Positions 8,438-54,647 are shown, counted from the stretch's first letter. The stretch is DNA of 64,000 bases from Acidilobaceae archaeon (GCA_039630105.1 JBCNVO010000044.1:9304-73303); one strand, 5' to 3'. Numbers and translations are program-made. Notes: generated by a model not told the origin, from the letters alone.

Positions 8438-8468
8438 CTGCTTCTCCTCGTGGGCTCAGTCTAGGAAG

Positions 8469-8475: not shown

Positions 8476-8505
8476 CACTTCACCCGAGAAAGGGGGGCAC
8501 GCGTT

Positions 8506-8982: not shown

Positions 8983-8985
8983 AGA

Positions 8986-9240
8986 GTGGGCGTGAGGGTA
9001 AGGGTCTACGGAGACCTCAGGGAGGTGCTGGGGTGGAGCCAGAAGGAGGTGGAGGCAGGGAGGAACTTGGGGGAGACTCTCAGAAAGGTTCCCCTCTTGT
9101 GGGAGTCCGTGAACAAATACCCCTTCGACACGTTAATGGTGCTGATAAACGGCCAGAACGTCCGGCTCTCCGGGGGCCTAGAGGCATCTGTAAAGGAGGG
9201 AGACGTCATAGACATCTTCCCGCCCGCAGCAGGCGGCTAG
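8986..9240 (+). CDS. moaD: MoaD/ThiS-family ubiquitin-like sulfur carrier
   Basis: 84 aa, beta-grasp-like, ending in the diagnostic C-terminal Gly-Gly (FPPAAGG). Adjacent to MoeA and FdhD-like genes. Confidence 0.7.
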   Translation: MGVRVRVYGDLREVLGWSQKEVEAGRNLGETLRKVPLLWESVNKYPFDTLMVLINGQNVRLSGGLEASVKEGDVIDIFPPAAGG

Positions 9241-11902: not shown

Positions 11903-11959
11903 GCTCTCCCCCGCATAGAAGGAGGAAAGTTATTATTGGCGAGGAGCCCGGGAGCTGTG

Positions 11960-12059
11960 TGGTGGGCCCGGAGGGATTCGAACCCCCGACCTACGGGTCT
12001 GGAGCCCCAGCCCACGCTCTGGCGTGGTCCGCCGCTCTGCCTGGCTGAGCTACGGGCCC
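11960..12059 (-). tRNA. tRNA-Trp (anticodon CCA) with a ~23-nt intron in the anticodon stem; CCA 3' end encoded
   Basis: Hand fold of the reverse complement. Acceptor GGGCCCG/CGGGCCC, D arm GCTC-AGCCAGGCA-GAGC, T arm GGGGG-TTCGAAT-CCCTC, discriminator A, then CCA. Removing ACCACGCCAGAGCGTGGGCTGGG (about 12006-12028) gives the anticodon arm GCGGG-CTCCAGA-CCCGT. Confidence 0.8.
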
Positions 12060-12087
12060 GCGCCCCTTCTTGAGAAGGGCCTGAAGA

Positions 12088-12570
12088 CTATAAACCTTTC
12101 AGGCTCTCCAGGAGCTTCTTCATGACCCTCAGCGTGAAGCCCCAGAGGACCAGGTCTCCCTCGAGCAGCACGCCGATCACCTTCCCCCTCCTCGGGTGCA
12201 CGACCTCTGCGGGCTCCTCCTTTGCTACGGAGAGAGGTATCCAGCCCGCAAAGTCTACCTCTCTGCTCTTGGGCCTGGGCTCTATGGGGCCCTTGGGAGT
12301 GCCAACTACGATCATGACCTTCCTCCTCCCCCTCCCTGCCACCTCCACGCCAAGATCTCCAAGCACCCTCACTGCGAAGGGCGGCACGTTCACCTCCTCC
12401 CACGCCTCCCTCAGGGCCGCCTGATGAGGGGTCTCACCGCCCTCTATCGAGCCTCCAGGGAAGGCTACGTCGCAGGCCCAGTAGCTCTCCACCTCGCAGG
12501 ACTTCCTCACTACGAGGATCTTAGGCTCCTTTCCCCAGACGAGAGCGAGGACAGCTGAGTCTGCTTCCAT
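12088..12570 (-). CDS. NUDIX hydrolase (CoA-pyrophosphatase-like)
   Basis: Nudix box FPGGSIEGGETPHQAALREAWEEVN. Confidence 0.8.
   Translation of the reverse strand: MEADSAVLALVWGKEPKILVVRKSCEVESYWACDVAFPGGSIEGGETPHQAALREAWEEVNVPPFAVRVLGDLGVEVAGRGRRKVMIVVGTPKGPIEPRPKSREVDFAGWIPLSVAKEEPAEVVHPRRGKVIGVLLEGDLVLWGFTLRVMKKLLESLKGL
12089..12095 (-). promoter_or_regulatory. TATA-like box (TTTATAG on the minus strand) for the tRNA-Trp gene
   Basis: Lies about 30 nt upstream of the tRNA 5' end (12059) and overlaps the 3' end of the NUDIX gene. Confidence 0.45.
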
Positions 12571-12591
12571 GGCCCCTCAGGAGAGGAGCTG

Positions 12592-13449
12592 TCAGGCTAA
12601 TATGGCTTTGATGTCCTTTGCTCTGGCGCTCAGGTAAGCGTAGAGGTTGTGAGGGTGGATGCTCTCATAGCTCTCAGCCTCCACCTCTATTAAGGCGTCT
12701 CCCCTCAGCTTTGCCTCCTCCACCACGTTCTTGGCTGCCTCCCTCACCACGTCCTCGAGTAGCTTAGGCCTCCTGAAGGCCTCCCTCACCAGCTTTGCCT
12801 CCTCAGCCCTCTTCAGGAGGGAGATGGAGGGGGCGGAGAGGCTTGCGAAGAGCGCCCTGGCGAGCTTCTCTACCCTCACCTGCTCCCCTCCCGTGACGAC
12901 CCTAGCCCTCAAGTTCACCCTCTGCATGTGGCTCACGCTCTCTCCGAAGGCTGCTTGTGCATACTCGAGGGCGCTGGGGCAGACTGTCATGCCTGTGACC
13001 TCTGCCGAGACCTTCCAGCTCCTCCCCCCTCCCTTCGTCATCTGCACCTCGGCCTCTATGTGAATGGGCTCTGTGCCCTTGATCCCCTCGAACTCCACTG
13101 GAACGTAGTAGACAGTCCTTGCCCTCGCAACGGCCTTTCTGGCATAGGCGTGCTTCTCCAGCAGCTTCCTGGCCACCTCTTCTAGGTACTCCTCTATGCT
13201 CCTCCCCTCCCCAGAGAGCACCTCCAAGACCTCCATGTTCCTTGAGAGGTGGGCACCTCTCCTGTCTTCAGAGATCTCTACGTATAGCTCCAGGGCTACG
13301 TCCAGGGTTACCTCGCCCTCTGGCGTGAGCAGCCTGATCCTTCTCTTCACGTCCTTGAAGCCTACTTTCTCTATGACCAGGGAGATCTCAGGCGCCCTGT
13401 CCTGCAGCTCCACTCCGGCTCCTAAAGAGGAGCCAAACGCTGAGCCCAA
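12592..13449 (-). CDS. mptA: GTP cyclohydrolase MptA/FolE2 family (type IV)
   Basis: 285 aa. N-terminal LQDRAPEISLVIEKVGFKDV and the RRGAHLSRNMEVL block match my recollection of the FolE2/MptA family. Confidence 0.65.
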   Translation of the reverse strand: MGSAFGSSLGAGVELQDRAPEISLVIEKVGFKDVKRRIRLLTPEGEVTLDVALELYVEISEDRRGAHLSRNMEVLEVLSGEGRSIEEYLEEVARKLLEKHAYARKAVARARTVYYVPVEFEGIKGTEPIHIEAEVQMTKGGGRSWKVSAEVTGMTVCPSALEYAQAAFGESVSHMQRVNLRARVVTGGEQVRVEKLARALFASLSAPSISLLKRAEEAKLVREAFRRPKLLEDVVREAAKNVVEEAKLRGDALIEVEAESYESIHPHNLYAYLSARAKDIKAILA

Positions 13450-13453
13450 ATAT

Positions 13454-15067
13454 TCAAGTCAGTTTGGAAAGCAGCGTTAGGTTGAGCTCTGCTATAGCTA
13501 CCGGGTACTCTAGGCCTACGTAGGACAGGACCTCAGGCCTCACCTCTCCCAGGAAGCCCACTACCTCTCCTTTCACAAGCACTTCTCCCGTCCTGCCGAC
13601 CATCGTTATAGCGTTCTCCCCAGGCCTCACAGAGAACTCTATGCCCAGAGCCCTGAGGACGCTGTAGAGGGGCGCCTGGACCTGCTCGTAGCTGACCTCC
13701 TCGTCCATGACGGCTATGGCAAGGTGCTCCTCGTCCACTATCTTGCCAGCCCTGAAAGCCACAGGCCCTATCTCGAAGACCTTCACGGGCTTGCTGGCAT
13801 GAGAAGCCTCAGAGAGCGTTTTCAGCATGGTGCTCGCAATGTTAGGCCTGAGCACGCTGTACTCTATCTGCACGGGGTTCAGGACCTCAACTGCTACCTC
13901 CCTAAGGCCCATGGACTCTAGCAGGGAGGGGCTAGTCAGGGAGAGCTGCATGACCTCTGTGAAGCCCATGCCTACTAGCAGGGAGCGGAGCCTCCTCTCC
14001 AGCAGGGAGAGCCTGTCGTAGCTCCCCCTGAGGGCGTACAGCTCCTTTGGCCTCTCGGGACCCAGGTTCTCGTAACCTATGTATATGGCTATGTCCTCTG
14101 CCAGGTCTATCGGCCTGAACACGTCCACGCGGAAGGGCGGCACCCTCACTATCAGCTCTTCGCCCTCGAGCTCCACATTGTACCTCATCCTCCTTAGCAA
14201 GGTCGCCGCCTCCTCCAGCGACAGCCTAGCCCCGAGCGCCCCCACCACCTCCCTCCCGCTGGCCCTGATCACCTTCTGCTCTAGGAGCGGGTACTCTGCC
14301 CCCCCTATCAGGACCTTGCCCACCCTCCCCCCTCTCTCCGCCAGGTTGACTGCCAGCAAGTCCAGGATCGCGGATGCTGTCTCGAGGCTAGTGGCTGTCA
14401 CGTCTATGAAGAGGTCCTTCGTGCCTACCTCAACCCTCGTCAGCTCGGAGTTCAGGACGGGGGGGACTGCTATGATCTCGCCCCCTGCCTCGAGGACAGG
14501 GTGCAGGCCTCCCTGCCTCGATATCGTGCCGTACTCGAGCCCCTTCTCGCTCTCCTCTAGCACCTCCCGGATCCTCCTCCTCCCCCCGCCGAGGGGCAGG
14601 AACTCTCTCTCCACGCTCTCCATCCTGTAAACGATCTGCTTGGAGGGGAGCTTGGAGAGGTCGTGGAAGCCTATGGCTGCCTTCTTCCTCCTCCTCCCAA
14701 GCCCCTCGTTCAGCTTCTCCTGGAACTGTATGAGCTCTTCCAGGAAGTCCTCGCTGTCCACGTTAACTCCATATACCACTGCAGCAACCACGTAGGGCCT
14801 TGTGGGCACATTCCCTACCTCTACCCTTACCCCGCTCCCCTCTGACGGGGGCTCCTTCCAGCCCTCCTCCCCCATAATGCCCCTAACTGCCCTGGCCAGC
14901 CCCTCTCCAATGAACATGTCAGGCCTGTCAGCGTTGATCTCCACTGCAACATATCCTTCTGCCTCTTCTGACTCGCACTTGAGCCTGAAGAGGGCCTCCC
15001 TCAGCTCCTCAGTGCCTAGTCCTGTCAGGCTGCTCAGCCTCCAGGGCCTGAACCTCAGGACTGGCAC
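13454..15067 (-). CDS. pheT: phenylalanine-tRNA ligase beta subunit
   Basis: 537 aa, archaeal-type PheT (B3/4 and B5 domains plus a class-II-like C-terminal domain). Lies immediately downstream of pheS. Confidence 0.9.
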   Translation of the reverse strand: MPVLRFRPWRLSSLTGLGTEELREALFRLKCESEEAEGYVAVEINADRPDMFIGEGLARAVRGIMGEEGWKEPPSEGSGVRVEVGNVPTRPYVVAAVVYGVNVDSEDFLEELIQFQEKLNEGLGRRRKKAAIGFHDLSKLPSKQIVYRMESVEREFLPLGGGRRRIREVLEESEKGLEYGTISRQGGLHPVLEAGGEIIAVPPVLNSELTRVEVGTKDLFIDVTATSLETASAILDLLAVNLAERGGRVGKVLIGGAEYPLLEQKVIRASGREVVGALGARLSLEEAATLLRRMRYNVELEGEELIVRVPPFRVDVFRPIDLAEDIAIYIGYENLGPERPKELYALRGSYDRLSLLERRLRSLLVGMGFTEVMQLSLTSPSLLESMGLREVAVEVLNPVQIEYSVLRPNIASTMLKTLSEASHASKPVKVFEIGPVAFRAGKIVDEEHLAIAVMDEEVSYEQVQAPLYSVLRALGIEFSVRPGENAITMVGRTGEVLVKGEVVGFLGEVRPEVLSYVGLEYPVAIAELNLTLLSKLT

Positions 15068-15070
15068 TTC

Positions 15071-16537
15071 TCACCACCTCGCCCTGAACCTCCTTATGAA
15101 GTCCACGTCGCTGGTATACAGGATCCTTATGTCTGGTATGCCGAAGCTCGCTGCTGCAAGCCTCTCTATACCAAAGCCCCAAGCCCCTATCGGGTAGTCC
15201 AGCCCTGCCATCTCCAGCACCTCTGGCCTGAACAGCCCTGCGCCGTACAGCTCCAACCATTTGCCGCTGGGGAGCTTCACGTAGCCCTCCACGCTGGGCT
15301 CTGTGAAGGGGAAGTAGGCGGGCTTGAACTTTGCCTCTAGCCCTAACCTCTCAGAGATGTCCTTGAGGGTGCCGAGGAGCTCCCTAAACGTGTAGCCCGG
15401 ATACCCCTCTATCCCGTCCAGCTGGTGGAACTCGGGGAGATGGGTCGCATCCACAGCGTCCCTTCTGTAAACTCTCCCTATTGTGAAGAACCTCATGGGT
15501 GGTCTAGGCCTACTGATCAGGGTGCGAGCTGAGACGGAGGTGGTCTGGCTCCGCAGCACTAGCCTAGCTGCCACCTGCGGGTCCCACTTGTACTTCCAGC
15601 TCCTCTCATGCGCCTCTGCAACCCTCCCGATGAGCTCCCCGTACTCTGACAGCTCGGCAGCCTCTCCCTTCAGCCAGAGGGAGTCGTGGATCTCCCTGGC
15701 TGGGTGATCTTGCGCTTGGAAGAGGAGGTCGAAGTTGAAGAGCTCTAGCTCCACCACGTTCCCCCTCACCTCCTTGAACCCCATCTCCTTGAAGAGGTCG
15801 CGCAGGAGCTCAATGAACTCTGCCAAGAAGTGCGCCCTCGCGGGGAGCACCTCTGGAGGCTCTGCCCTCACGTCATATGACCTGAACCTGAAGGACCTCC
15901 AGCTCCCGCTCCTCAGCATGGAGGAGGTGAGCCGGGACGCCTCTACCCTTGCCTCCCTGAGGACCTCCTGCAGGTCCTTTGTTACAGAGACCAGGAGCTC
16001 CCTCTCCTCTACCTCCTCTACGAGCCCTCTGCCCTTCAGCTCCTCGAACAGCTCCCTCTGCGGCGACCTCCCCTCCCTGCACTCCTCCAGGGCCCTCCTT
16101 AGGGCTGCTACCCTCTCCAGCGCTTCTTCCCTCGGCAGGGAGAACCTCACCATGCCCCCTTCCACTGCTATCAGCCCCTTCCTCCTCGCCTGCCCTATCG
16201 CTATCCCTGCCTCCTCCCCTAGCCTTGCAGAGAGCTCTGACAGCAGCGCCCCTCCCTCGCCTATGCTCCTCACCAGCCTCTCCTCTGGCAGCCCTCTCTG
16301 GAGCACGTTTTCCCCCCTCTGCGTGAGCCTAGGCCTCCTCGTCGAACTCTCCCTGACCTCTAGTATCCCTTTCTCCTTCAGCAGCATGAATATGCTGGCC
16401 AGCTTTGACCTCTCGAGCCCTAGAACTGCAGACGCTTGGGAGAGGGAGCCAGAGGAGAAGCCCCTCTCCCTCATCAGCTTAACTACTTCGTACTCTCCCT
16501 CGCTGAGGGCATAAACAATAGTCGATCCCGCTCTCAC
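15071..16537 (-). CDS. pheS: phenylalanine-tRNA ligase alpha subunit
   Basis: 488 aa. Class-II motifs (FRFRSYDV..., GRVYRRD, GAGLFRPEVL, AWGFGIERL). Confidence 0.9.
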   Translation of the reverse strand: MRAGSTIVYALSEGEYEVVKLMRERGFSSGSLSQASAVLGLERSKLASIFMLLKEKGILEVRESSTRRPRLTQRGENVLQRGLPEERLVRSIGEGGALLSELSARLGEEAGIAIGQARRKGLIAVEGGMVRFSLPREEALERVAALRRALEECREGRSPQRELFEELKGRGLVEEVEERELLVSVTKDLQEVLREARVEASRLTSSMLRSGSWRSFRFRSYDVRAEPPEVLPARAHFLAEFIELLRDLFKEMGFKEVRGNVVELELFNFDLLFQAQDHPAREIHDSLWLKGEAAELSEYGELIGRVAEAHERSWKYKWDPQVAARLVLRSQTTSVSARTLISRPRPPMRFFTIGRVYRRDAVDATHLPEFHQLDGIEGYPGYTFRELLGTLKDISERLGLEAKFKPAYFPFTEPSVEGYVKLPSGKWLELYGAGLFRPEVLEMAGLDYPIGAWGFGIERLAAASFGIPDIRILYTSDVDFIRRFRARW

Positions 16538-16631
16538 CTGAAGGTCGGGGCTTATAGGTTATGTGGTCAGTCCTCACACGGCCTCTCACAGGCAATGCCT
16601 CGACCCGGAGTCGCTCCTCATCCCGCCTCGA

Positions 16632-19286
16632 CTATTCGTAAGAGCCTAATATTTTGTCCAGGCTCCTCTGGCCCGTTATCTCCTCCCACTCCACTCCGAA
16701 AGACTCCAGTATCTGCTCGAAGGCAGTCCTCATGTGCTCCACGTACTTGCTGACGTCCACCTCGGAGAGCTTTGCAAGGCTTACGGGCTTTACTCCCACA
16801 GAGTCCTTCGTCTTCACGAAGGAGATTATGTTGCCCCTAGAGACGGGTATCCCCTCTGCCTGCAAGATCCTTGCTGCCTTCACGTGCTGCGGCGTGGTCT
16901 TCTTGTACCTCTCTGGATCCTTTGACAGCATGACCCTTATCGCTAGCTCGTCGAGAGTGTAGCCCCTGTTCTTCACCTTCTTGTACATCTCGAGCAACCT
17001 CTCCCTGATCTTCCCCAGCACCACGTAGGCGCTCTCAGGGTCCTCCAGCTCGCCCAGGACCTCCACCACCTTCCTGAACTCGTTCTTTATGAACTCTGGA
17101 GTGCTGCTCTTCTTGCCGACCATGCCCTTTATGATCACCTCCCCCTTCTCCGTCACGCCTATGTAGTTCTTCTTCAACCCTCCGAAGAGCACTACCTTGA
17201 ACCTCTTGTCTAGCTCGAGCTCCAGCCCGTACGTGTCTGCCACGTACTTGATCAGGAACTCCAGGTCCTCCCTCTTCGGGTCCCACACGAATATGCTGTC
17301 TGTGTCTCCATAGATTATGTAGAGAGACCTCTTCCCTGCCACCTTCAGTGTGTCTGTGAGCACTGTCCTGCCTATGGCAGTGACGCTCTCTGCCACGGAG
17401 AGGCTGTAGAACGGGAACGCCTCGTTTCCGAAGACGCCGTAGCTAGCATTAATGTAGACCTTGAGGGCAGACTGGACAGCATCGTACCACCTCCTCTGCT
17501 CCTCTGGCAGGCTGCTGTCCTTTGCCCTCTTCTTGTATACCTTCACCCTGAACTCCCTGAGTAGGCCCACGATCTCGCTCGTGATCCCCCTGAAGTCAGT
17601 GCAGACCTCGTAGCCTACCTCAGGGATCTTCCTCCTCTCTTCACACCTAGGGTTCTCTATCGTCTCGTAGCTGAGGTTCCAGTTCTTGACTATCGAGGGG
17701 TACAGGCTGGCATAGTCGAGGACAGCCACGTTGAAGAAAAGGCCAGTAGGCGGCTCTAGGACTATGGCTCCCCTGTACCTCTTGTCCTTTATCGTGGCCC
17801 TGCTCCTCGCCTCCCCCGCGCTCAGCTCCTCCCTGCTAGGGATGAGCCACCCCCTCCTCCTGTGCTCCCAGTTCATGAGCCCCCTGATCCAGGCGGACAC
17901 TTGGTGCCTCGTGACGTCCTCCAGCCCAAGCTTGCTTATCCTCATAACCATGATTATGAGGTTCCAGACCAGGTCGTTCGAGAACGTGGTCAGGTCCCTC
18001 GTTATCATAGCATCTCTAGCATTGTACTCTATCAGCTTGCTCAGGCTGACCCTGGAGACTATCTCGTCCAGCTTCACCTTGCTCACGCCTAGCAGAGCTT
18101 CTGCCACGCTCTCCAGCCTGAGCTCCCTGTAGCTCCCTCCGAAAGCGTAGACCTGGAGGGCCTTTATGCCGAAGAGCTTGTGCAGGTCCACGTGGAGGGA
18201 GTGCCTGAAAGTGATCATATCCTCGTGGACCTCCATAGGTATGTGGAGCTCCTCTACCCCTAGGCTCAACATTCTGTTGTAGAGGTAAGGTAGATCGAAG
18301 GCGTCGCCGTTGAAGGTGAGGATCACCGGGTACTTCTCCAGCTCCCTCATGAGCTCGAGGAGCATAGCTCTCTCTGAGTCGAAGACCTCCACCTCTGCTA
18401 CCTCCCTCGGTATCTCCCCTCCCAACCTGACCCCCTCCCTGTGCAGGGCTAGCACCTTTACCCTGCCCTCGTTGTCTGCTATGGCAACGCTGATGACAGG
18501 GTATGGTGCTTTCTCAGGATCTGGAACCTTCCCTGCCTCAGGAGTGTAAACCTCTACGTCTATAGCAGCCCTCCTGACCTTCGGCGGCCTCTGCTCGAAG
18601 AGGTAAGCTAGTTCCCTCGTCATCTCAGAGTACTCCTTCGACTCGCCTTCTGCCATGCTCATCACGCTAGAGAGGAACGCTGGGTCTATGTCCCAGCCAG
18701 ACCTCTCCGTCTTCCTCGCTGCCCTGTACCTCATGCCCGGCACGAGCAAGTTGTCGAATATGTAGTTGTGATGGTACCTTATGTCTGCCTCCCAGAACTT
18801 GAAGCCCTTGTCCCCCACAATGCCCCTGAGCCTCCTCACTGCCAGCGGGTTGTCTACTATGATCTTGGTGAGCCTTGCCCTCTCCCTCCTTATTGAGCGG
18901 AACTTGCTCACTATGTCCATTTGCACTATGAGCTCGCTGTCCTCTGCGCTCATGCCGAGCCTCTGGAGGTCCTCTGGGGCTGCGTCTGTGAGGAAGTAAG
19001 GCTTGTGATCCGTCCTGTCCACCCACCTCACCATCTTCCCCTCGTCGCTCACGAGGAAGGCTACTGCTCTGTTCAGCCTCCCGTCATACCTTACGTCTAG
19101 CAGGTAACCCTCTACCTCTCCGCTGCCGTTAACCACCTCTCCGAGAGACCAGGAGCGGGAGGTCCTTTCTGCTTTCACCTCTCTCAGCCTGTCCTCATAT
19201 GAGAAGCTCTCGAAGATGTTCTTTACTCTTTCCCTCACGTCATATTCCATGTACTCGTCCAGCGTCCTGCTGTTCCTCCTGTTCAC
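16632..19286 (-). CDS. polB: family-B DNA polymerase (crenarchaeal PolB1/Dpo1-like)
   Basis: 884 aa. Exo I AAIDVEV, Pol A DYASLYPSI, Pol C YGDTDS, KKxY-type motif KKNYIG. Confidence 0.95.
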   Translation of the reverse strand: MNRRNSRTLDEYMEYDVRERVKNIFESFSYEDRLREVKAERTSRSWSLGEVVNGSGEVEGYLLDVRYDGRLNRAVAFLVSDEGKMVRWVDRTDHKPYFLTDAAPEDLQRLGMSAEDSELIVQMDIVSKFRSIRRERARLTKIIVDNPLAVRRLRGIVGDKGFKFWEADIRYHHNYIFDNLLVPGMRYRAARKTERSGWDIDPAFLSSVMSMAEGESKEYSEMTRELAYLFEQRPPKVRRAAIDVEVYTPEAGKVPDPEKAPYPVISVAIADNEGRVKVLALHREGVRLGGEIPREVAEVEVFDSERAMLLELMRELEKYPVILTFNGDAFDLPYLYNRMLSLGVEELHIPMEVHEDMITFRHSLHVDLHKLFGIKALQVYAFGGSYRELRLESVAEALLGVSKVKLDEIVSRVSLSKLIEYNARDAMITRDLTTFSNDLVWNLIIMVMRISKLGLEDVTRHQVSAWIRGLMNWEHRRRGWLIPSREELSAGEARSRATIKDKRYRGAIVLEPPTGLFFNVAVLDYASLYPSIVKNWNLSYETIENPRCEERRKIPEVGYEVCTDFRGITSEIVGLLREFRVKVYKKRAKDSSLPEEQRRWYDAVQSALKVYINASYGVFGNEAFPFYSLSVAESVTAIGRTVLTDTLKVAGKRSLYIIYGDTDSIFVWDPKREDLEFLIKYVADTYGLELELDKRFKVVLFGGLKKNYIGVTEKGEVIIKGMVGKKSSTPEFIKNEFRKVVEVLGELEDPESAYVVLGKIRERLLEMYKKVKNRGYTLDELAIRVMLSKDPERYKKTTPQHVKAARILQAEGIPVSRGNIISFVKTKDSVGVKPVSLAKLSEVDVSKYVEHMRTAFEQILESFGVEWEEITGQRSLDKILGSYE

Positions 19287-44060: not shown

Positions 44061-46226
44061 TTGTCGAAGGAGAAGGTAAGAGAGGTGACGCTGCGGGTAG
44101 CAGAGGCGAAGCCCAAGGACTCGGGGAAGAAACGTATCAGGATAGACGTAGACATAATGAAGTACCTTGGCTTGGAGTCAGGAGACATAGCAGAAATAGA
44201 GGGGAAGAAGAAGACAGTTGCCATCGTTTGGCCTGCTCTGCCAGAGGACACTGGCCTAGAGGTCATCAGGATGGACGGGCTCATCAGGAAGAACGCGGGA
44301 GTTAACATAGGCGACAGGGTTGTGGTGAGGAAGGTTACTGCAAAGGCTGCAACGAGGGTGAAGCTAGCACCGACTACTTACATAGGGAACGACGAGTCCC
44401 TCAAGAGGCACGTGAAGAAGAGGTTGGTGGGAACCCCCGTAGTGGAGGGGGACATAGTTATTGTGCAGGTGATAGGTCAGGCCATCCAGCTCCAGGTGGT
44501 CGACGTGAGGCCAAGGGGGGCAGTGGTCATAACAGAGGAGTCCAATGTGGACGTGCTCGACAAGCCTGTCGCTGTCTCCTCGCCGAAGATCACTTACGAG
44601 GACATAGGGGGTCTCGCGCACGTAGTGGCAAGGGTAAGGGAGCTGGTGGAGCTCCCGCTGAGGTACCCAGAGTTGTTCAAGAGGCTGGGCATAGATCCGC
44701 CAAAGGGCATCTTGCTCTATGGCCCTCCTGGCACAGGCAAGACGCTCCTGGCAAAGGCTGTGGCGAACGAAGTGGACGCGCACTTCATCCCAGTTAACGG
44801 GCCAGAGATCATGAGCAAGTTCTACGGCGAGAGCGAGCAGAGGCTGAGGGAGATATTCAAGGAGGCCGAGGAGAAGGCTCCCTCCATCATATTCTTCGAC
44901 GAGATCGACGCCATAGCTCCGAAAAGGGAGGAGGTGACTGGGGAGGTAGAGAAGAGGGTTGTGGCTCAGCTCCTAACTCTCATGGACGGGCTTAAGGAGA
45001 GAGGTAAGGTAATAGTAATAGGCGCAACCAACAGGCCTGACGCAGTGGACCCGGCTCTCAGGAGGCCTGGGAGGTTCGACAGGGAGATAGAGATCAGGCC
45101 TCCTGACAAGGACGCGAGGGCTGAGATACTGAGGGTCCACACGAGGTACATGCCCCTCTCTGAGGACGTGGACATAGGCAAGATAGCTGAGATAACGCAT
45201 GGTTTCACAGGCGCAGACATAGCAGCCTTGGCAAAGGAGGCAGCCCTCTCGGCCCTGAGGCGTTTCGTGAGGTCCAGCGCTGTGGACCTCTCGAAAGTGG
45301 AGAAGGTGCCTGTCGAGATCCTGAGAGACCTCAAGGTCACAATGAACGACTTCACGGAGGCTATGAAGTTCGTGAGGCCCTCGCTCATAAGGGAGGTATA
45401 CGTGGAGGTCCCCAAGGTAAAGTGGGAGGACATTGGGGGGCTGGAGGAGGCAAAGCAGGAGCTGAGGGAGGCAGTGGAGTGGCCTCTGAAGCGCCCTGAG
45501 GTTTTCGAGAAAATGGGCATAAGGCCTCCCAAGGGCATTCTGCTCTACGGCCCGCCTGGCACCGGTAAGACGCTGCTTGCAAAGGCTGTGGCCACAGAGA
45601 GTGGGGCTAACTTCATAGCGATTAGGGGGCCAGAGGTGCTGAGCAAGTGGGTGGGGGAGAGCGAGAAGGCCGTGAGGAAGGTCTTCGAGAGGGCCAGGCA
45701 GGTAGCCCCAGCAGTCATATTCTTCGACGAGATAGATTCCATAGCCTCCACCAGGGGTTACAGGTTCGACTCTGGAGTTACGGACAGGGTGGTGAACCAG
45801 CTGCTCACTGAGATGGACGGGATACAGGCCTTCAAGAACGTAGTGGTCATGGCAGCGACGAACAGGGCAGAGCTTCTGGACACTGCCCTCCTGAGGCCAG
45901 GGAGGTTCGACAGGATCATATACGTGCCGCCCCCGGACAAGGCTGCTAGGAAGGAGATCTTCGAGATCCACTTGAGATCGGTGCCTTTGGCAGAGGACGT
46001 AGAGGTGGAGAAGCTCGCAGAGCTCACAGAGGGCTACACGGGGGCTGACATAGAGGCTGTGGTGAGGGAGGCAGTCATGCTCAAGCTGAGGGAACGCTTC
46101 GAGGCAGAGCCAGTGAAGATGGAGCACTTCATGGAGGCTCTAGGGAAGGTGAAGCCCAGCCTGACGAAGGAGGCGGCAGCCAGATACGAGAGGACCTATC
46201 AGGAGCTCAAGAGAGTTATAGGCTAG
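44061..46226 (+). CDS. cdc48: CDC48/VCP-like AAA+ ATPase
   Basis: 721 aa. N-terminal double-psi barrel region, then two AAA modules each with GPPGTGKT and DEID Walker motifs. Confidence 0.95.
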
Positions 46227-47854
46227 AGCCTAGCCAGATACACTTTCTCCCTCCCCAGCGTAACTCCCTCTTGAGGCGAGTACTCTTCTGGGAGCACGGC
46301 GCAGTCAACGTACGAGAGCTTGTAGAGTATCTCTGCTGTCTCTGCCCTCGATACCTCCACCTTCCTCCCCTCGTAGAGCTCTGAGTAGACATCGTAGACT
46401 GCTGCGAGCCTACACTCGCCTTTGCTCACGAGAAGGATCCTCCTCTCCACCTCCTTCAGCACCTCCCCCACATAACCTGCCCTGGAGCTGGAGACTAGGA
46501 GATTGCCTGAGCCTCTCAACACAGTTACTGTCCTGAACCTCTCTTTCCCTCCTGGGTATATGATCTTGTTCCCATATTGGGAGAGGTCGATGAGCCTCGT
46601 GTCCACGAGAGACACTATTGACTCCTCTGGCGCCTGGACCTGTAGTGCCTTGAGCTTGGAAAAGGCCTCCAGCAGCTTCCCAGATTCTACAGAGGAGTGC
46701 GCGTTTGCCTTTGGAAGGCTCGCTATGGAGTAGCTCTCCACTGCCACTGGGTATCCCAGCAGGCCTTCTCCCGTCTTAATTGTGGCCAGAGGGAGGTAGA
46801 GCCTCCTCCTGGGGTCTAGCCTAACGTTGGTCCCCAGCAGCACCTCCACGCTCCTCTCCTCTGCTGCCGCTGGAAGTCCCAGGGAGTCCAGGAGGCCCAT
46901 GACGAAGGAGTTCATGACGTTCACTGCGGCCCTCGGGTTACCAGGGAGACCTATCACGAGGCTCCATCCTACAGTGCTCACTATCGTGGGCTTGCCAGGC
47001 TTTACCCTCAGTCCTCTCACCAGCACCTGACCCATGGAAGCCAGCACCTTCGGCAAGACGTCTCCCGTGCCGAGGCTGGTGCTGCCGCTAGCTATCACTA
47101 CGTCGCTCCCCTTAGCTCTCCCCAGCGCTCTCTCCACATCCTGCTCTGTGTCCTCTACGATGCCAAGGTCAGCTACCTCGTACCCTAGCGAGGACATGAG
47201 GGAGGCTATGTAGTGTCTGTTGGCATCGTACGTCTTCCCCGCCGCGATCGGGCTCCCCGGCTCCAGGAGCTCCCTACCAATGCTGAACACTGCCACCTTC
47301 GGCTTCCGAGAGGCCAAGACTTTGTCCACGCCTAGAGATGCGAGGGAGGCGACAGAGACTGGAGTGATCCTAGAGCTGCGGTGGAGGACCACGTCGCCGC
47401 TGGAGACGTCGGTGGCAGGAAGGGCCATTCCGTCGCCGAGAGAGGGAGGCTCTCGGATCGTCACGAGATCTCCTACCACCTCTACGCTCTCTAGGGGCAC
47501 TACGGCCTCAGCCCCTGGCGGGACTATGGAGCCCGTGTCCACATACGCGCACTCTCCTCTCCCTATCCTAGGGGGGATCCCCTCCCCGATAGCCTGCCTG
47601 AAGGCAAGCCTCAGCGTCATGGGCCTCTGGGGGGAGGCATGCGCTAGGTCCAGGAGAGAGACTGCATAGCCGTCAAGCGTCGAGCGTGGCAGGGGAGGGA
47701 GAGGCATGGGTGCCCTCACGTCCTCTGCCAGCAGCCTGCCGTGAAGGGCTGAGAGGGGGACCCTCTCAGGGTCTCTCAGGAGGGACTCAACTATTCTCCT
47801 CCCCACTGCCCTCCTTACTCTCTCGACAGCCTGCGCTGGCTCCAGGAGTTCCAT
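46223..47854 (-). CDS. moeA: MoeA-family molybdopterin molybdo/tungsto-transferase paralogue with a ~140-aa uncharacterised C-terminal extension
   Basis: 543 aa. Blocks [30 protein letters not shown] and KPGKP. I recognise nothing in the last ~140 aa. Confidence 0.8.
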
Positions 47855-48713: not shown

Positions 48714-49218
48714 GCGACTTGATCACGATCCTCATGGGCAGCGGCACCTTCCTTGCCCCCCTCCTCAGCGCCTCCTTGATCTTGTCCTCGCTCCCTGCCC
48801 TCCCCCACACGTCTATCACCACCTGCCCTACGTTCACCCTCGCTGCTGTCCCTATGGGCTTCCCGAAGGCCAGCCTCATGCCGTCCTGGAGCCTGTCAGC
48901 GCCAGCGAAGGCCATCATCTTGTTCTCCCTCAGCACGTGGTGCGGGTAGACGCGGATCCTCATGTAGTAGTTTGCCTCCCCGAGCAGGGTCGTGAGGGTC
49001 TTGTTGACCATTATCCTCGCTGCCTCCAAGGCGTTGTGCCTCACGTTTCCTGACTCGAGAGCAATCAGTTCCCCTTTCACCTCCCCCTCCTCCATGAGGG
49101 CTCTGTTGCCCATCTCGAACTTGGTTATCTTCGGCATCGGCACGCCAGGCACGTACTCCTTCCTCGTGTAGGGCGGGCCGCTGAAGTGTGTGTAGCACCT
49201 TGCAGGCCTAAGGGGCAT
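48682..49218 (-). CDS. rpl10e: 50S ribosomal protein L10e (uL16)
   Basis: [22 protein letters not shown]... is a typical L10e N-terminus. The start is taken at the second ATG (49218). The 3' end overlaps tatC convergently. Confidence 0.9.
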
Positions 49219-50194
49219 GCCTCTCACCTCCCATGGCGCTCTCTCTGAGGCTTAAAAGCGGAGAAGTGGCATATGGAGGAGAGGAAATGTCCAGCTCCTC
49301 CATGAGCTCGCAGAGCTTGCATATGCTCCTGCCTGGAGCTGTGGGGGCACCGCACCTGGAGCACTTGCTTACCCTCTCCTCCCCTGGCATCAGCAGCTCG
49401 TCGAGCAGCTCGAGAGCTCGGAACAGGGCCCCAGGGCTCCTCCTCTCCAGCCTGTAGAGCTCCCCCCTGAGCCTTGCCCTAAGCGTAGGGTGCTCAGATA
49501 TGTACATACACTCTACCCGCTGGAAGGGGAAGTTCCTTATCATAGCGTAGGTCGCAGACTCCCACTCGTATATCTTCCTCAACGGCTTCACCCTCTTTAC
49601 TCCTGCGCCTTTGCTCAAGGGGTGGAGCCTCATGAGGCCTGCCAGATCCCCCCTCAAGATGTTCATGATCGCTGTCTGCACCTCGTCGTCCAGGTTGTGG
49701 GCTGTGGCCAGCTTGTCCGCCCCCAGCTCCTCTGCCACACTGCTCATGATCCTTCGCCGAGCTACGCCACAAAAGGTGCAGGCAGAGGTGCTGCTCCCCC
49801 TAGCCCTAGCTTCCCTCACCATATCGTGAACGCTGAGCCCAGCGAAGTTCTTCACCCTCACCACCAGGAGCTCCACTCCGTAGCCCCTTGCCACCTCCCT
49901 CAACCTTGCCACGTCCTCCTCCCTGTTATATCCAGGAATCCCCTCCACTATCGAGAGGCCCACTAGTTTCGAGGGGTCGTGGAGGAGGGAGATGCTCTCG
50001 AGGAGGACGTAGCTGTCCTTCCCCCCGCTGAGGGCAAGGAGGACTCTGTCCCCAGGCTCTATCATATTCCACTTCTCGATCTCTGACTTTATCCTCGAGC
50101 GAACGTCCTCCAGGAAGCACTCTCTACAAATGGCTCTCGACCCGACTGGCTGGAAGACTGCTGCCTTTCTCGCGTTGCAAACGGGGCAGATCAT
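49208..50194 (-). CDS. PP-loop tRNA 2-thiolation ATPase (TtuA/NcsA-like) with N- and C-terminal Zn fingers
   Basis: 328 aa. CPVC...CRECF at the N-terminus, PP-loop SGGKDS, and C-terminal CSRCG...CKLC. Confidence 0.8.
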
Positions 50195-50217
50195 TAGGAT
50201 CGAGGATTCAGCACTCG

Positions 50218-53200
50218 ATGAGCTTATTATGCTTGCCTGCTTATAATTGGTGCCCTAGCGTGAGTTCTCCAGAAAGGAAACCTGCGCGTGACCCTTATCC
50301 ACTAGTGAAGGAGCTAGCGGAAAGGTTCAAGGAACACCCCTTCATAATTCCTTTCTATGACATGACAGACAAAGATATAGAGGTCTTTACTCACCAGCTA
50401 GAAGCCCTTGCCCTCGCAGCAGCTCGAAGTCCTCTGAGGTTCTTCTTGGCTGACGAGATAGGCCTCGGCAAAACCATAACAGCCATCTCTCTCATGAAAT
50501 TGCTCACAAGAGATAGGAGGAGGGCGCTGATTTTAGTGCCCAAGATCCTCATGCGTCAGTGGTGCCGCGAGCTCCTCAGGATGGGAATTAAAGACAGCAA
50601 ATATCTGAAGAGAACGGGGAAGGGGCTCTCCGCGTGTTCTTGCGAAGAGGACTCTATCTGTATCAACCTTCATAACGTGAGTGACGTTCTAGTCGCATCT
50701 ATGGACTTAGCGAAGAAGAAAGATGTCCACAAAGAACTGGGGAAGTTACTGAGAGAGAAGAATTGGAATCTTATTGTGGTAGATGAGGCCCACCGCCTCA
50801 GCTCCCATCCGCGTGCCACAGAGAGGTTCAGTATGATAGGGGAAAAGCTCGTGAAGGAATCGCCTCAAGCCAACGTGATCTTCCTTTCCGCGACCCCTCA
50901 CAGGGGGTATCAAGACGATTATGTGAATAGACTCTGGCTCCTCGACCCGGCTCTTGACGCAGAGAGGTTAAGGAAGGAGACAGACGACCAGGTACTAAAG
51001 GTATTCTACTCCGGTGTTCACAGAGCTCTCCTCCTCCGCAGAACGAGAAGGGATGTGAACCAATATGAGGGGAAGAAAATCTTCACGAACGCCCATTTCC
51101 AGTCCATACCAGTGAAGACGCAGGAGTTAGAGGAGCAGTTCATGGAAAAGCTTAGGGAGGCCCTGAAGAATCTCGTGAAGTTTGCCAACAAGTTCGAGAA
51201 AGAAAACAAACCCCATGCGAGAGCTATGCAGCTGTTAGCTGTCACCCTTTTCAAGAGAGCCTCTTCCAGCCCCAAGGCAGCGTTTCTAACCCTCACGCGC
51301 ATGAAAGACAAGAGAGAAAGTGCGGAAAGAGCTGCAAAGAAGGAAAATCTGGACGAGGAAATCAAGAATTTTGTAAGAAAAGTCGAGGGCGAGGTTTTCC
51401 CATACGAGGACATCGAGTGGGACGAGGGGGAGGAGGAGCTCGAGGAGAGCAGCATATACGATCAGATTGCTGAAAAGGGTATGACAAGCATATATGCTAT
51501 GAACGAGAGAGAAGGAGGGCGCATAATCGAGAACATTATACAACTCAAAGGAATTTTAGAGGAGCTAGAGAAGGGCGACTCGAAGCTCAGAGAACTGATC
51601 AAGCTAATCGAGAAGGAGAGGAATAGTGGGGCTAGTAAGATAATAATCTTCACGGAATTCAAGGACACGCTGGACTATCTGAGGGAGCGTCTCCCATGGG
51701 GAGATAACGTACTGACCCTCAGCTCTGAAGAGGCTCGCAGTTCTGGCAAGCTGCGCGACATAACGCAGAAGTTCGCCAATGATGATAAGTACTGGCTCCT
51801 CATTTCCACAGACGTAGCGTCAGAGGGAGTTAACCTTCAGGTTGCCAATGTGCTCATAAACTACGAAGTACCGTGGAGCATGGTCAAACTGGTACAGAGG
51901 GTAGGGAGGATCTGGAGGTTAGGGCAGAAGAGGGACGTCAAGATCTATTTTATGTTCCTCGATACGAAATCTGACAGAGCAGCCTGGGAGAAGGTCTATG
52001 AGAAAGTACTCGAGGCGAAGAGGGCTGGCATCCGTACAGAGCTCTCAGAGGAGGCCCTCCTAAGGTTCCAGAGCCTCACGTCGCGGCTTACATCGCACGA
52101 CGATATGTCCTCGGAGTTCAAACTCATCCTAACGTATCTCGAGGGCGGCGAGGAGGAGCTAGAGAGGTCAGTGGACAAATCTCTCGGGGATTTAGACAGG
52201 GACATAGAATTCGCAAAGAGAGCCATAATGCGGGAAAGCATGGATCCGGGGGAAGTTCAGGAGCTAATGTATAGGGCTTTTGGATTCCCCACCTCTGAAG
52301 AGCTCAAGAACTCTATGGAAAAGCTCACAAAGCTGATAGGAGGCTACGAGGAAGGGAACCCAGTAAAGGTGCTCTACAGCAAGTTTGGGACCTCGCCTAG
52401 AGACTCGAGCACGAGGAAAGACTTCCTACACGTGAGGAGCAGTGCAGACATCGGGAAAGTATGGCTCACAGAGATGATAGTTAAGACGAGGGATGGGAAG
52501 ATCCTGTACCGCCAGCCTCTCGCTATAACTGAAGGGAAGATCCTGAAGGGGAGGGACCTCATAGAGATGGTCGCGAAGGCTATGGGAGGGAAACACGAGA
52601 TCAGGAGGGAGCATGAAATCAGTGAGGAGCGGGAAAGACTCGCTAGAGAAAGGGAGGCAGTGAAGAGTCAGCTGGAGGGAGAGGTGAGGGAGCTTCTGAA
52701 AAGGGAGGTAGAGGAACTTCTAGAGCCGCTGAGGAGATACGGGGAGAATATGACAAACGTAAGAGGGAGCTCTCTGACAATGTCTGAAGAACCCGACGTA
52801 GAGATCGCTGAGCCCTTCGCAGTCATAGAGCACGGAGAGATAGAGGAGGAAGAGGCCATCGATGTCTTTGAGGAGCTGAAGAAGATGATAACTAGGGAGC
52901 CAATGAGCCCAGAAGTCTTGGGGGAGAGGCTGATGGAGCTCAGAGAGAGGGGAGCAAAGGCGGAGTCAATTTTCAGGGCCTTCGAGACCATGGTAGAAAG
53001 GATGGGCGACCTAGGGAGAGCACTAAAGGAGAGCTTTGGGAGCAAGAAAGAGATAGATGAGAGCCTCAAGAGAGAGATCGAGAGGAAGGCGATAGAGGCA
53101 GTCATGAAGTACGAGAGGGAACACGGAAGGGAGCCCAGGGACGTCTCTCTGGAGCCCTGCTCAGAGGAGAGGTGCTACGACGTGGAGAGCTGGCAGGGAG

Positions 53201-53463
53201 GGGAGCTAGTGAGGAAGATAGAGGTGAAGGGGCACATGGGGGATGAGCTAGTGGCGGAGCTCACTGAGAACGAAATGAGGGAGGCGGAGAGGTCAGGGAA
53301 AAAGTACTGGATATACATAGTGACTGGGGCATGCCTGGCAGAGAACTGCAGGGAGTTGGAGATTCATGAGTTCCCGGATCCCCTCAACATGATGGAGGTA
53401 AAGGAATTGACGAGGTTGGTAAAGAGGTACGAGCTGAGGCCCAAGAGCTCCCCAGATCAATAA
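50218..53463 (+). CDS. SNF2-family (RapA/HepA-like) SF2 helicase fused to a C-terminal DUF3883-like PD-(D/E)xK nuclease-fold domain
   Basis: 1081 aa. Helicase motifs DEIGLGKT (aa 79-86), VVDEAH (187-192), LSATP (223-227), IIIFTEF (475-481), STDVASEGVNLQ (530-541) and QRVGRIWRLGQ (560-570). C-terminus: CYDVES...RKIEVKG...YWIYIVT. The central part has visibly lower G+C than the neighbours. The start is uncertain (in-frame GTGs at 50260 and 50305). Confidence 0.8.
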   Translation: MSLLCLPAYNWCPSVSSPERKPARDPYPLVKELAERFKEHPFIIPFYDMTDKDIEVFTHQLEALALAAARSPLRFFLADEIGLGKTITAISLMKLLTRDRRRALILVPKILMRQWCRELLRMGIKDSKYLKRTGKGLSACSCEEDSICINLHNVSDVLVASMDLAKKKDVHKELGKLLREKNWNLIVVDEAHRLSSHPRATERFSMIGEKLVKESPQANVIFLSATPHRGYQDDYVNRLWLLDPALDAERLRKETDDQVLKVFYSGVHRALLLRRTRRDVNQYEGKKIFTNAHFQSIPVKTQELEEQFMEKLREALKNLVKFANKFEKENKPHARAMQLLAVTLFKRASSSPKAAFLTLTRMKDKRESAERAAKKENLDEEIKNFVRKVEGEVFPYEDIEWDEGEEELEESSIYDQIAEKGMTSIYAMNEREGGRIIENIIQLKGILEELEKGDSKLRELIKLIEKERNSGASKIIIFTEFKDTLDYLRERLPWGDNVLTLSSEEARSSGKLRDITQKFANDDKYWLLISTDVASEGVNLQVANVLINYEVPWSMVKLVQRVGRIWRLGQKRDVKIYFMFLDTKSDRAAWEKVYEKVLEAKRAGIRTELSEEALLRFQSLTSRLTSHDDMSSEFKLILTYLEGGEEELERSVDKSLGDLDRDIEFAKRAIMRESMDPGEVQELMYRAFGFPTSEELKNSMEKLTKLIGGYEEGNPVKVLYSKFGTSPRDSSTRKDFLHVRSSADIGKVWLTEMIVKTRDGKILYRQPLAITEGKILKGRDLIEMVAKAMGGKHEIRREHEISEERERLAREREAVKSQLEGEVRELLKREVEELLEPLRRYGENMTNVRGSSLTMSEEPDVEIAEPFAVIEHGEIEEEEAIDVFEELKKMITREPMSPEVLGERLMELRERGAKAESIFRAFETMVERMGDLGRALKESFGSKKEIDESLKREIERKAIEAVMKYEREHGREPRDVSLEPCSEERCYDVESWQGGELVRKIEVKGHMGDELVAELTENEMREAERSGKKYWIYIVTGACLAENCRELEIHEFPDPLNMMEVKELTRLVKRYELRPKSSPDQ

Positions 53464-53468
53464 CCTTC

Positions 53469-53476
53469 TTTATTAA
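53469..53476 (+). promoter_or_regulatory. TATA-like box (TTTATTAA) upstream of the acyl-CoA dehydrogenase gene
   Basis: Lies 31 nt upstream of the ATG at 53508, directly after the helicase stop. Confidence 0.5.
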
Positions 53477-53507
53477 TGCCCAGCCTGCCTCCCTTGGGAA
53501 GAGATCT

Positions 53508-54647
53508 ATGGGCGGGGACATAGAGTCCATAAGGGCGAGCACGAGGGAGTTTGCAGAGAGGAGGCTGAGAGGAGTTGCGAAGCTCATAGATGAGAGGAAC
53601 GCTGTGCCAGAGGAGATCCTGAGGGAGGTAGCAGAGATGGGCTATTTCTCGCTCAAGGTGCCAGAGGAGTACGGCGGTCCAGGCCTTTCTGTTCTGGAGA
53701 GCGCAGTAGCGATAGAGGAGCTCTCCAGGGTCTCGAGCGCCGTGGGCATTATGGCCACTGTGAGCGGGACCATGGTGCCCTACCCGATCGCAAGGTACGG
53801 CACCCCTGAGCAGAAGGAGAGGTACTTGAGCATCCTTGCCAAGGGCGGCATTGGAGCTTTCGCCCTCTCTGAGCCCTGTTGCGGGAGCGACGCTGCTTCG
53901 ATAGCCACGAGGGCTACGCTAGAGGGGGACGAGATAGTCATAGAGGGCACAAAGACCTACATAACGAATGCTCCCTACGCAGACTTCTTCCTCGTGGCAG
54001 TGAGGACAGGGAGGGAGGAGGACAGGCACAAGGGCATATCCCTCGTGATCCTCGACAGATCTCCTTGCATGAAGATGTCCAAGCTCGAGATGATGGGCTA
54101 CAGGGGGAGCGGCACCTCAGAGCTCAGGCTGGAGGAGTGCAGGACGAGCAAGGAGAACCTGATAGGGGAGCTGAACACGGGCTTCAAGAAGATCATGATG
54201 ACGCTGAACGAAGGTAGAGTGACTACTGCGGCAACGGGGCTAGGGATAATGCAGGCTGCCTTCGAGGAGGCCTTCAGCTATGCTAGGCAGAGGACCAGCA
54301 TGGGGGTGCCCATAATAGAGCACCAGATGGTGCAGCACCTCCTCGCAGAGATGAACGTCCTACTCGAGACCTCAAGGCTCATAGTTTACGAGGCTGCAAG
54401 GAGGCTGGACGCAGAGGACCCTGAGATCGCTAGGTACGCCAGCATAGCGAAGCTGTTCACAGCCAGCAGGGGGGTGGACTTGGTCAGGATGGCCATGCAG
54501 GTCATGGGAGGGGTGGGCTACAGCAAGGACAGCACCGTGGAGAGGCTCTACAGGGACATAAAGATGATAGAGATAGGCGATGGAACTAACGAGATACAGC
54601 GTATGGTCATAGTGAGGAGCCTGCTGGGGAAGATAAGGGCTGACTAA
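53508..54647 (+). CDS. acyl-CoA dehydrogenase
   Basis: 379 aa. Blocks ALSEPCCGSDAAS, TKTYITNAP and IGDGTNEIQRMVI. Confidence 0.9.
   Translation: MGGDIESIRASTREFAERRLRGVAKLIDERNAVPEEILREVAEMGYFSLKVPEEYGGPGLSVLESAVAIEELSRVSSAVGIMATVSGTMVPYPIARYGTPEQKERYLSILAKGGIGAFALSEPCCGSDAASIATRATLEGDEIVIEGTKTYITNAPYADFFLVAVRTGREEDRHKGISLVILDRSPCMKMSKLEMMGYRGSGTSELRLEECRTSKENLIGELNTGFKKIMMTLNEGRVTTAATGLGIMQAAFEEAFSYARQRTSMGVPIIEHQMVQHLLAEMNVLLETSRLIVYEAARRLDAEDPEIARYASIAKLFTASRGVDLVRMAMQVMGGVGYSKDSTVERLYRDIKMIEIGDGTNEIQRMVIVRSLLGKIRAD

Follow-up and report, generated by a model that had tools for sequence, protein, structure and literature searches.

An orphan HmaA-type SNF2 helicase/NOV_C nuclease gene, probably acquired horizontally, between ncsA and acd of an Acidilobaceae archaeon

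Introduction

Hma (helicase, methylase, ATPase) systems were named by Payne et al. in 2021 (PADLOC), with 1,638 operons distributed over 26 phyla (PMC8565338). Their components are the helicase HmaA, the DUF1156 N6-adenine methyltransferase HmaB and the DUF499 AAA+ ATPase HmaC. The HmaA protein of Halomonas meridiana, in which an Snf2 motor is joined to a NOV_C domain, was tested in 2024 and is enough on its own to defend E. coli against T4; its NOV_C domain acts as a nickase on supercoiled DNA with Mn2+, and its gene is separated from hmaBC by embedded genes (PMC11232893). A re-description of 2026 (Nucleic Acids Research) treats these loci as Type-1 DUF499-centred BREX-related (BR) systems, present in 2,446 taxa that include 203 archaea. 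Helicase and restriction endonuclease (REase) are fused in 79% of these systems, earlier sightings dating from 2013 and 2020, and the BR helicases are described with an N-terminal TUDOR domain and with inactive REase and alpha+beta modules in the middle (PMC12839542). Thermoproteota generally show a lower prevalence of defence systems than other archaea, except for CRISPR-Cas, restriction-modification and argonautes (PMC12988326). Here we analyse a gene at positions 50218-53463 (plus strand) in a stretch of 64,000 nucleotides from an Acidilobaceae archaeon (GCA_039630105.1, JBCNVO010000044.1:9304-73303), referred to below as the window, whose product carries an SNF2 motor and a NOV_C nuclease on a single polypeptide and whose usual operon partners are missing from the surrounding 64 kb.

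Domain architecture and family identity

The gene is organized as follows (window coordinates).

50218-53463, plus strand: intact open reading frame (ORF), 1081 aa, the longest frame of the HmaA-type SNF2 helicase/NOV_C nuclease gene
50290-50391 (aa 25-58), plus strand: conserved N-terminal segment, ...PLVKELAERFKEHPFIIPFYDM..., which precedes the motor in all archaeal homologues
50392-51207 (aa 59-330), plus strand: SNF2 ATPase lobe 1
51208-51582 (aa 331-455), plus strand: charged helical insertion between the lobes, with the motif FKRASSSP at aa 345-352
51583-52017 (aa 456-600), plus strand: SNF2 ATPase lobe 2/Helicase_C, containing TDVASEGVNLQ
52018-53067 (aa 601-950), plus strand: middle region, helical bundles and an alpha/beta domain
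53068-53445 (aa 951-1076), plus strand: NOV_C/DUF3883 PD-(D/E)xK nuclease domain
53179-53181, 53221-53223, 53227-53229 and 53272-53274, plus strand: catalytic residues D988, E1002, K1004 and E1019, respectively

Both parts of the motor are recognized by Pfam above the gathering score (SNF2-rel_dom at aa 75-311, E = 1.5e-15; Helicase_C at aa 456-569, E = 2.1e-20). The motor contains motif I, DEIGLGKT (aa 79-86, nt 50452-50475), motif II, DEAH (aa 189-192, nt 50782-50793), motif III, SATP (aa 224-227), FTE (aa 478-480), TDVxxEGxNLQ (aa 531-541) and motif VI, QRxGRxWRxxQ (aa 560-570, QRVGRIWRLGQ in this protein, nt 51895-51927), all of which fall in invariant or nearly invariant columns of a 52-sequence family alignment. 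For lobe 1 the nearest solved structure by sequence is RapA (E = 1e-25). The charged insertion between the lobes is conserved family-wide and is not specific to the window protein.

At the other end of the polypeptide, NOV_C (PF13020, formerly DUF3883) matches aa 954-1038 with E = 1.4e-14 and 54.3 bits, the cut-off being 22.1. D988, K1004 and E1019 are invariant in the family alignment, in which E1002 reaches at least 90% conservation. With AlphaFold2, aa 940-1081 were modelled at a predicted local distance difference test score (pLDDT) of 90.9 and a predicted template modelling score of 0.85; the top PDB matches of this model are the archaeal Hjc resolvases 2wiz, 2wcw, 1ob9 and 4tkd (Foldseek probability 1.00, E ~2e-3, template modelling (TM) score ~0.5-0.6, identity 10-20%). 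At the level of the model, this match confirms a PD-(D/E)xK fold for the C-terminal domain; it indicates fold, not function, and Hjc is a stand-alone dimeric resolvase, unlike the fused nuclease described here. An Hjc-like nuclease fold has been reported for the Halomonas protein as well (PMC11232893). An earlier sequence-only reading of the gene had proposed an SNF2 motor, a long linker and a DUF3883/NOV_C PD-(D/E)xK nuclease, and the Pfam matches, the conserved catalytic residues and the Hjc-like model bear this out; the motifs that it placed along the protein are those found in the conserved columns.

That reading had also called aa 580-950 motif-free; the segment nevertheless has homologous counterparts throughout the family, with a mean identity of 22%. 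When aligned alone, aa 580-950 mis-anchored on the NOV_C domain of the homologues, and the alignment of aa 580-1081 was used instead. Delimited as aa 601-950, the middle region is the least conserved part of the family, with a mean identity of 22% to the window protein and of 32% among the homologues. The model of aa 580-1081 (pLDDT 78.8) consists here of helical bundles together with an alpha/beta domain, confidently modelled at about aa 737-797 (nt 52426-52608), that has no catalytic motif. The middle region contains no conserved D/E-x-K, and the domain, as modelled, is compatible with the 'inactive REase/alpha+beta' modules of BR helicases (PMC12839542). For the middle region, Pfam gave nothing above threshold (TPR-S was sub-threshold, E = 0.12), and Foldseek with the aa 580-1081 model gave no significant structural match, Hjc being matched by the C-terminal domain only. 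Two lineage-specific helical insertions, aa 873-891 and 899-942 (nt 52834-53043), are located next to the nuclease domain.

The gene product almost certainly belongs to the HmaA family. Of the PADLOC models, HmaA matches it best (PDLC00659, E = 2.6e-69, 232 bits), with the DrmD and BrxH models next; PADLOC provides no curated cut-off for the HmaA model, on which operon-encoded archaeal homologues reach 189-207 bits, below the score of the window protein. When 5.8 billion protein clusters were searched, the protein itself came first, followed by hundreds of ~980-aa proteins that share its Pfam architecture and align with it end to end at 30-38% identity and up to 97% coverage, mostly from Thermoproteota, Bathyarchaeia, Korarchaeota, Nitrososphaerota and Methanomethylicia, with some from bacteria. 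As in HmaA, the SNF2 motor is followed by a long non-catalytic middle and a C-terminal NOV_C/DUF3883 PD-(D/E)xK nuclease, and the D...ExK...E tetrad is the same (D1084/E1104/K1106/E1121 in Halomonas, D988/E1002/K1004/E1019 in the window protein). The protein differs from HmaA members in being at most 38% identical to them among the matches listed, and it shares with the other archaeal members the absence of the ~90-aa N-terminal extension of the bacterial HmaA profile, its match starting at position 93. Because this architecture had been named by Payne et al. in 2021 (PMC8565338) and re-described as Type-1 BR in 2026 (PMC12839542), the earlier statement that it is not a named system was incorrect; the defence-like logic that accompanied it fits the HmaA family. 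The gene, at present labelled 'helicase-related protein', can be renamed HmaA-type SNF2/NOV_C helicase-nuclease.

Several other known proteins were compared with the window protein. DrmD, from DISARM, and BrxHII, from type 3 BREX, have a closely related SNF2 motor (PADLOC DrmD 2.2e-59, BrxH ~1e-50), but they have no C-terminal NOV_C nuclease and their partners, DrmA/B/C/MI and PglX/PglZ, are different. ZorD, of type I Zorya, also unites an SNF2-family ATPase and a PD-(D/E)xK-type nuclease in antiviral defence, although its nuclease is Mrr-like and not NOV_C and it functions downstream of ZorAB, a membrane motor. Hna and Nhi likewise carry helicase and nuclease on one polypeptide, a single gene being sufficient, whereas Hna is a ResIII/Helicase_C_2 protein and Nhi an SF1 DUF2075 helicase with an N-terminal nuclease (PMC11232893, Table 2); both lack a NOV_C domain and are smaller, ~840 and 610 aa, respectively (PMC11232893). 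RapA, the SNF2 ATPase associated with bacterial RNA polymerase, has no nuclease and a different biology. Identity with DrmD was rejected at 218 bits against a cut-off of 610 (NCBIfam NF038317), no DrmA/B/C genes being nearby; with ZorD at 56 bits against 1500 (NF041790), where only lobe 2 matches; and with RapA at 133 bits against 576 (NF003426). Taken as a set, DrmD, BrxH, DpdE, ZorD, RapA and Hef were discarded, their scores being far under curated cut-offs or their matches restricted to the motor.

Operon context

In six homologue look-ups, covering nine places, a DUF499 gene lies directly upstream of the helicase in all; a DUF1156 gene is present wherever the contig reaches far enough, and an MBL (metallo-beta-lactamase)-like gene is found downstream. 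The shared operon is composed of a DUF1156 methyltransferase, a DUF499 ATPase, often a protein of ~145 aa, the SNF2/NOV_C helicase-nuclease and an MBL-fold protein of ~410-430 aa, and its partner proteins match PADLOC HmaB (~1e-43) and HmaC (~1e-54). Eighty further metagenome loci (L031-L110) were checked by tblastn with the partner proteins: DUF499 is upstream in every one of the 67 that have at least 1.5 kb of upstream sequence, and an MBL-fold gene is downstream in 60 of the 65 that have at least 1 kb of downstream sequence.

The window locus departs from this arrangement. Five DUF1156 proteins used in tblastn (E ≤ 1e-6) detected no HmaB in the 64-kb window, HmaC gave no tblastn match there either, and the small protein and the MBL-fold partner are equally missing within the 64 kb, in line with the earlier remark that the gene has no partner. 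The only other window ORF longer than 800 aa encodes DNA polymerase B. The gene is placed among housekeeping genes, not in a defence island, and its orphan state and its strong divergence, described below, are its sole unusual points.

Some properties of the archaeal Hma operons themselves were recorded. The small protein (~145-200 aa), whose gene separates those of the DUF499 ATPase and the helicase, has no Pfam or PADLOC match; the downstream MBL-fold protein matches Lactamase_B/Lactamase_B_2, with a weak RMMBL match, and no PADLOC model. They are two conserved genes beyond the three-gene Hma definition, and the words MBL and lactamase are absent from the 2026 BR paper and from the 2024 Hma-embedding preprint. 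In one homologue lineage the operon adjoins a 1608-aa DEAD/Helicase_C/MZB protein (DruE-like) and a 698-aa protein, a context of defence-island type, unlike the housekeeping surroundings of the window gene. In L029 and L030 the operon has Mrr_cat nucleases at its flanks, and an integrase and a MazE-like gene are near that of L027. The DUF499 ATPase of L028 is split into 6177-7586 (469 aa) and 7610-9598 (662 aa), which could reflect a frameshift or a pseudogene, or else be a true split. The positions of the additional genes in their loci are:

L001: small-protein gene 7103-7534; MBL-fold gene 10515-11753
L027: small-protein gene 9016-9624; MBL-fold gene 13118-14422
L029: small-protein gene 7316-7750; MBL-fold gene 10798-12096
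L003: DruE-like protein gene 14378-19204
L004: DruE-like protein gene 13496-18322
L005: DruE-like protein gene 9715-14541, minus strand

Insertion between ncsA and acd

The surroundings of the gene are arranged as follows.

49208-50194, minus strand: left flank, NcsA/TtuA-like PP-loop tRNA thiolation protein, a divergent host gene
50195-50235, no strand: ancestral spacer at the left junction, holding the A/T-rich CTTATTATG (50223-50231)
50236-53445, no strand: inserted foreign DNA, ~3.2 kb, essentially coding sequence only, boundaries ±10 nt
50241-50248, plus strand: TATA-like TTATAATT, within the insert and close to its left end
53446-53507, no strand: ancestral spacer at the right junction, encoding the last five codons, SSPDQ, and the stop
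53508-54647, plus strand: right flank, acyl-CoA dehydrogenase (ACAD, gene acd), a host gene

Scanning of species-representative genomes with the neighbouring NcsA-like protein yielded two close relatives, the Acidilobaceae metagenome-assembled genomes (MAGs) SKYB59 (L006) and SKW39 (L007), whose NcsA proteins are 84% and 72% identical, and whose ACAD proteins are 90% and 87% identical, to those of the window. Both keep the order MCM-PBP-Sua5-ACAD-NcsA-L10e-TatC-MoeA-CDC48, and in both ACAD is directly adjacent to NcsA at a distance of ~100-120 nt, with no helicase between them. The junctions were mapped by a two-piece (split) alignment of the 119-nt SKYB59 spacer to the window, SKYB59 being the only informative relative, as the SKW39 spacer is too diverged for this purpose. 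Homology to the spacer extends on the left up to ~50229-50235 and resumes on the right from ~53435-53445, with an alignment score of 69 against -5±10 for shuffles (maximum 22), and the ends of this homology define the foreign segment as about 50236-53445. On the left, CTTATTATG occupies the position of the ncsA promoter-like box of the relatives, a putative promoter; just inside the insert, TTATAATT may serve the helicase gene as a promoter element. The right spacer contains the TATA box of acd, TTTATTAA (53469-53476), which is conserved in SKYB59.

Composition was compared with that of 40 host genes, the window containing 58 ORFs. The G+C content (GC) of the gene, 0.511, is the lowest among the 58 (host 0.586±0.018, z = -4.3), and its GC at third codon positions (GC3) is 0.647 against 0.757±0.031 (z = -3.5). 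Codon choice is shifted in the same comparison, with AAA:AAG at 25:65 against 78:755 in the host (Fisher p = 3e-6), GAA:GAG at 39:106 against 95:1390 (p = 8e-13) and AGA:AGG at 24:51 against 114:1030 (p = 5e-7). About 40% of the drop in GC is explained by amino-acid composition; with host codon preferences, the GC would be 0.558. The deviation follows a 5'-to-3' gradient: it is greatest over the first 240 codons (GC3 0.56-0.60), and in the last 120 codons (53101-53460), at the nuclease end, GC3 (0.775) and the choice of lysine and glutamate codons are both host-like. The genes of the family in metagenomes have a mean GC of 0.449. This mean is compatible with a donor of lower GC and a partial adjustment toward host composition, and the partial shift of codon usage to host values, above all at the 3' end, suggests long residence.

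The A+T shift, the host-like 3' end and the single-gene insert between a tRNA-thiolation gene and acd had all been noticed by eye, and the computed profile and the adjacency of ncsA and acd in the two relatives agree with those observations. The identities of NcsA and ACAD suggest the order ((window, SKYB59), SKW39). On this order a single gain is a more parsimonious account than a pair of losses, and the foreign composition gives further support to gain over losses. The gene is very probably a horizontally acquired single-gene insert in one Acidilobaceae lineage.

A repeat search gave no target-site duplication or att-like repeats at the junctions. The best local alignment between them, GAGTTCTCCAGA/GAGCTCCCCAGA, is not significant, 22% of shuffles being as good, and what looks like a repeat of the acd TATA region at the left junction does not reach significance either. 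There is no integrase-sized partner near the insert and no tRNA gene at the junctions, the only Rfam tRNA of the window (11963-12059) lying 38 kb away. A viral vector was considered and rejected, as a scan of IMG/VR gave only distant or partial SNF2 matches, the best of which covers aa 450-1077 at 30% identity and comes from a contig that is truncated.

Start codon and divergence

The true start of the protein probably lies downstream of 50218. The ATG at 50218 sits inside the ancestral ncsA-acd spacer, near the relatives' ncsA promoter-like box, and residues 3-17 of the long ORF are unique to the window protein; together these two observations make a downstream start likely. The alternative in-frame starts are:

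50233, plus strand: TTG
50260, plus strand: GTG (1067 aa)
50305, plus strand: GTG
50362, plus strand: ATG (1033 aa)

The homologues have 21-25 residues ahead of the conserved HP(F/L)xxP(Y/F) motif, which corresponds to H40-F46 in the window protein. GTG 50260 (V15) gives the same start-to-motif spacing and is the start that best fits the N-termini of the homologues. The NCBI annotation places the start at ATG 50362 (M49; MEN2999799.1) and leaves out the segment with the HPFxxPF motif, conserved in all archaeal homologues; to judge from the alignment, the annotated protein is probably truncated. As in all archaeal homologues, 40-58 aa stand ahead of the motor.

The window protein is the most diverged member sampled, and in a neighbour-joining tree no other branch is as long as its own. 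It shares 38% identity with its nearest neighbour, while each of the other homologues sampled has one at 47% or more. In a leave-one-out comparison, 183 columns are at least 90% conserved in the others, and the window protein keeps 150 of them (82%); for the others the median is 97.8% and the lowest value 90.3%. The conserved positions that were lost are non-catalytic (for instance F142C, P143E, G156D, Y158L, H986C and Y1036T), and a further lineage-specific insertion is present at aa 145-155. That 1081 codons have remained uninterrupted despite ~62% amino-acid divergence argues for purifying selection along most of the branch.

Other features of the window

The Rfam tRNA at 11963-12059 (minus strand) has 97 nt and scores 50.2 bits; ARAGORN gave no tRNA in the whole window. 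A length of 97 nt suggests that it is an archaeal tRNA with an intron. Two MoeA-like molybdopterin molybdenumtransferase paralogues are encoded at 9237-11198 and 46223-47854, both on the minus strand; one is fused to a C-terminal PBP-like domain (PF12727) and the other has no MoeA_C match.

Discussion

Taking into account that: (i) the protein has the architecture and the catalytic residues of HmaA; (ii) its gene interrupts a spacer that is continuous in the two closest relatives, and (iii) no partner gene is detected in the window, we propose, with a probability of roughly 0.6, that the locus holds a horizontally acquired orphan HmaA effector, possibly working alone. In the model, a lone hmaA gene would have entered the short ncsA-acd spacer, between the two divergent promoters, as ~3.2 kb of coding sequence only, leaving behind HmaB, HmaC, the ~145-aa small protein and the MBL-fold protein. 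As expected from the family, the SNF2 motor would bind double-stranded DNA and translocate using ATP, delivering the metal-dependent nuclease of Hjc-like fold, which would nick or cut the DNA of an invading virus or plasmid. The effector would work stand-alone, as the Halomonas HmaA does when expressed alone. We infer that the gene is expressed and still functional, and that it takes part in defence with no methylase. Given the intact ORF and the catalytic residues, the odds that it is at present a functional stand-alone defence effector seem to us slightly less than even. It is more doubtful still, though conceivable, that the lineage holds a naturally methylase- and ATPase-independent HmaA, which, once orphaned in a hyperthermophilic archaeon, has itself evolved the means to sense or discriminate foreign DNA; the lineage-specific helical insertions that adjoin the nuclease (aa 873-942), together with the changes at conserved surface positions, would be candidates for the basis of such self-sufficiency.

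Several observations weigh against an effector working alone. We found no clear promoter belonging to the gene, whose start codon is ambiguous as well; the low retention of conserved columns and the longest branch could reflect relaxed constraint or changed function; and the neighbourhood is one of housekeeping genes, not a defence island. None of the 67 informative loci is without DUF499, and a family almost never found without this ATPase suggests an effector that normally depends on its partners. The partner search, in turn, covered 64 kb of an incomplete MAG, and partners may be encoded elsewhere in the genome.

The same facts can be read in other ways. A non-functional or decaying passenger, a lone effector captured by chance and drifting without the partners it needs, would account for the lowest retention of conserved positions and the longest branch, for partners in all the informative loci and none at this one, and for a coding sequence inserted without an obvious promoter, both ends of whose ORF run into ancestral spacer. 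Nevertheless, the 1081-codon ORF is intact, every catalytic residue of the ATPase and of the nuclease is retained, the substitutions are at non-catalytic positions, the C-terminal domain is modelled as a confident fold, and the codon usage, partly shifted to that of the host and above all at the 3' end, suggests long residence; we regard decay as improbable, at less than one chance in five. Somewhat less probable again is that the protein serves a complete Hma/BR Type-1 system, with a methylase and an ATPase acting in trans from another part of the genome. The tight tie of the family to DUF499 and DUF1156, the inspection of 64 kb of an 84-kb MAG contig and the separation of Halomonas hmaA from hmaBC by embedded genes (PMC11232893) are in its favour, but no partner matched within the 64 kb, the genes are contiguous in all sampled archaeal loci, and, since the insert is a single gene absent in both nearest relatives, the partners would have had to be acquired separately.

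A defence effector repurposed for host DNA transactions, such as the processing of forks or junctions by an SNF2-driven Hjc-like nuclease, would suit the housekeeping neighbourhood, the match of the nuclease fold to Holliday-junction resolvases, the lineage-specific insertions just before the nuclease (aa 873-942) and the changed surface positions. The composition is foreign, however, the family offers no precedent, the Hjc match is that of the general PD-(D/E)xK fold (TM ~0.5, 10-20% identity), and absence from the two closest relatives argues that the function is not a core one; this explanation is distinctly unlikely. Very little likelihood is left for a previously undescribed and unnamed single-gene helicase-nuclease defence system. 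The gene is solitary and no homologue exceeds 38% identity among the matches listed, but the architecture, the profile match, the full-length homology and the literature all point to the named HmaA.

The locus offers a precisely mapped case, from a hyperthermophilic crenarchaeon, in which only coding sequence was acquired and came to lie between two divergent promoters. The archaeal HmaA clade, as sampled, is found essentially always in a methylase-ATPase-effector-MBL operon, and because the partners are nearly universal, an intact single-gene orphan constitutes a rare natural test of whether the effector works, and is tolerated, without its modification and sensing partners, a question addressed so far by one heterologous experiment in E. 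coli. If the lineage does hold a methylase- and ATPase-independent HmaA, the Hma/BR effector would be a self-sufficient immune module in nature, and not only when over-expressed in E. coli.

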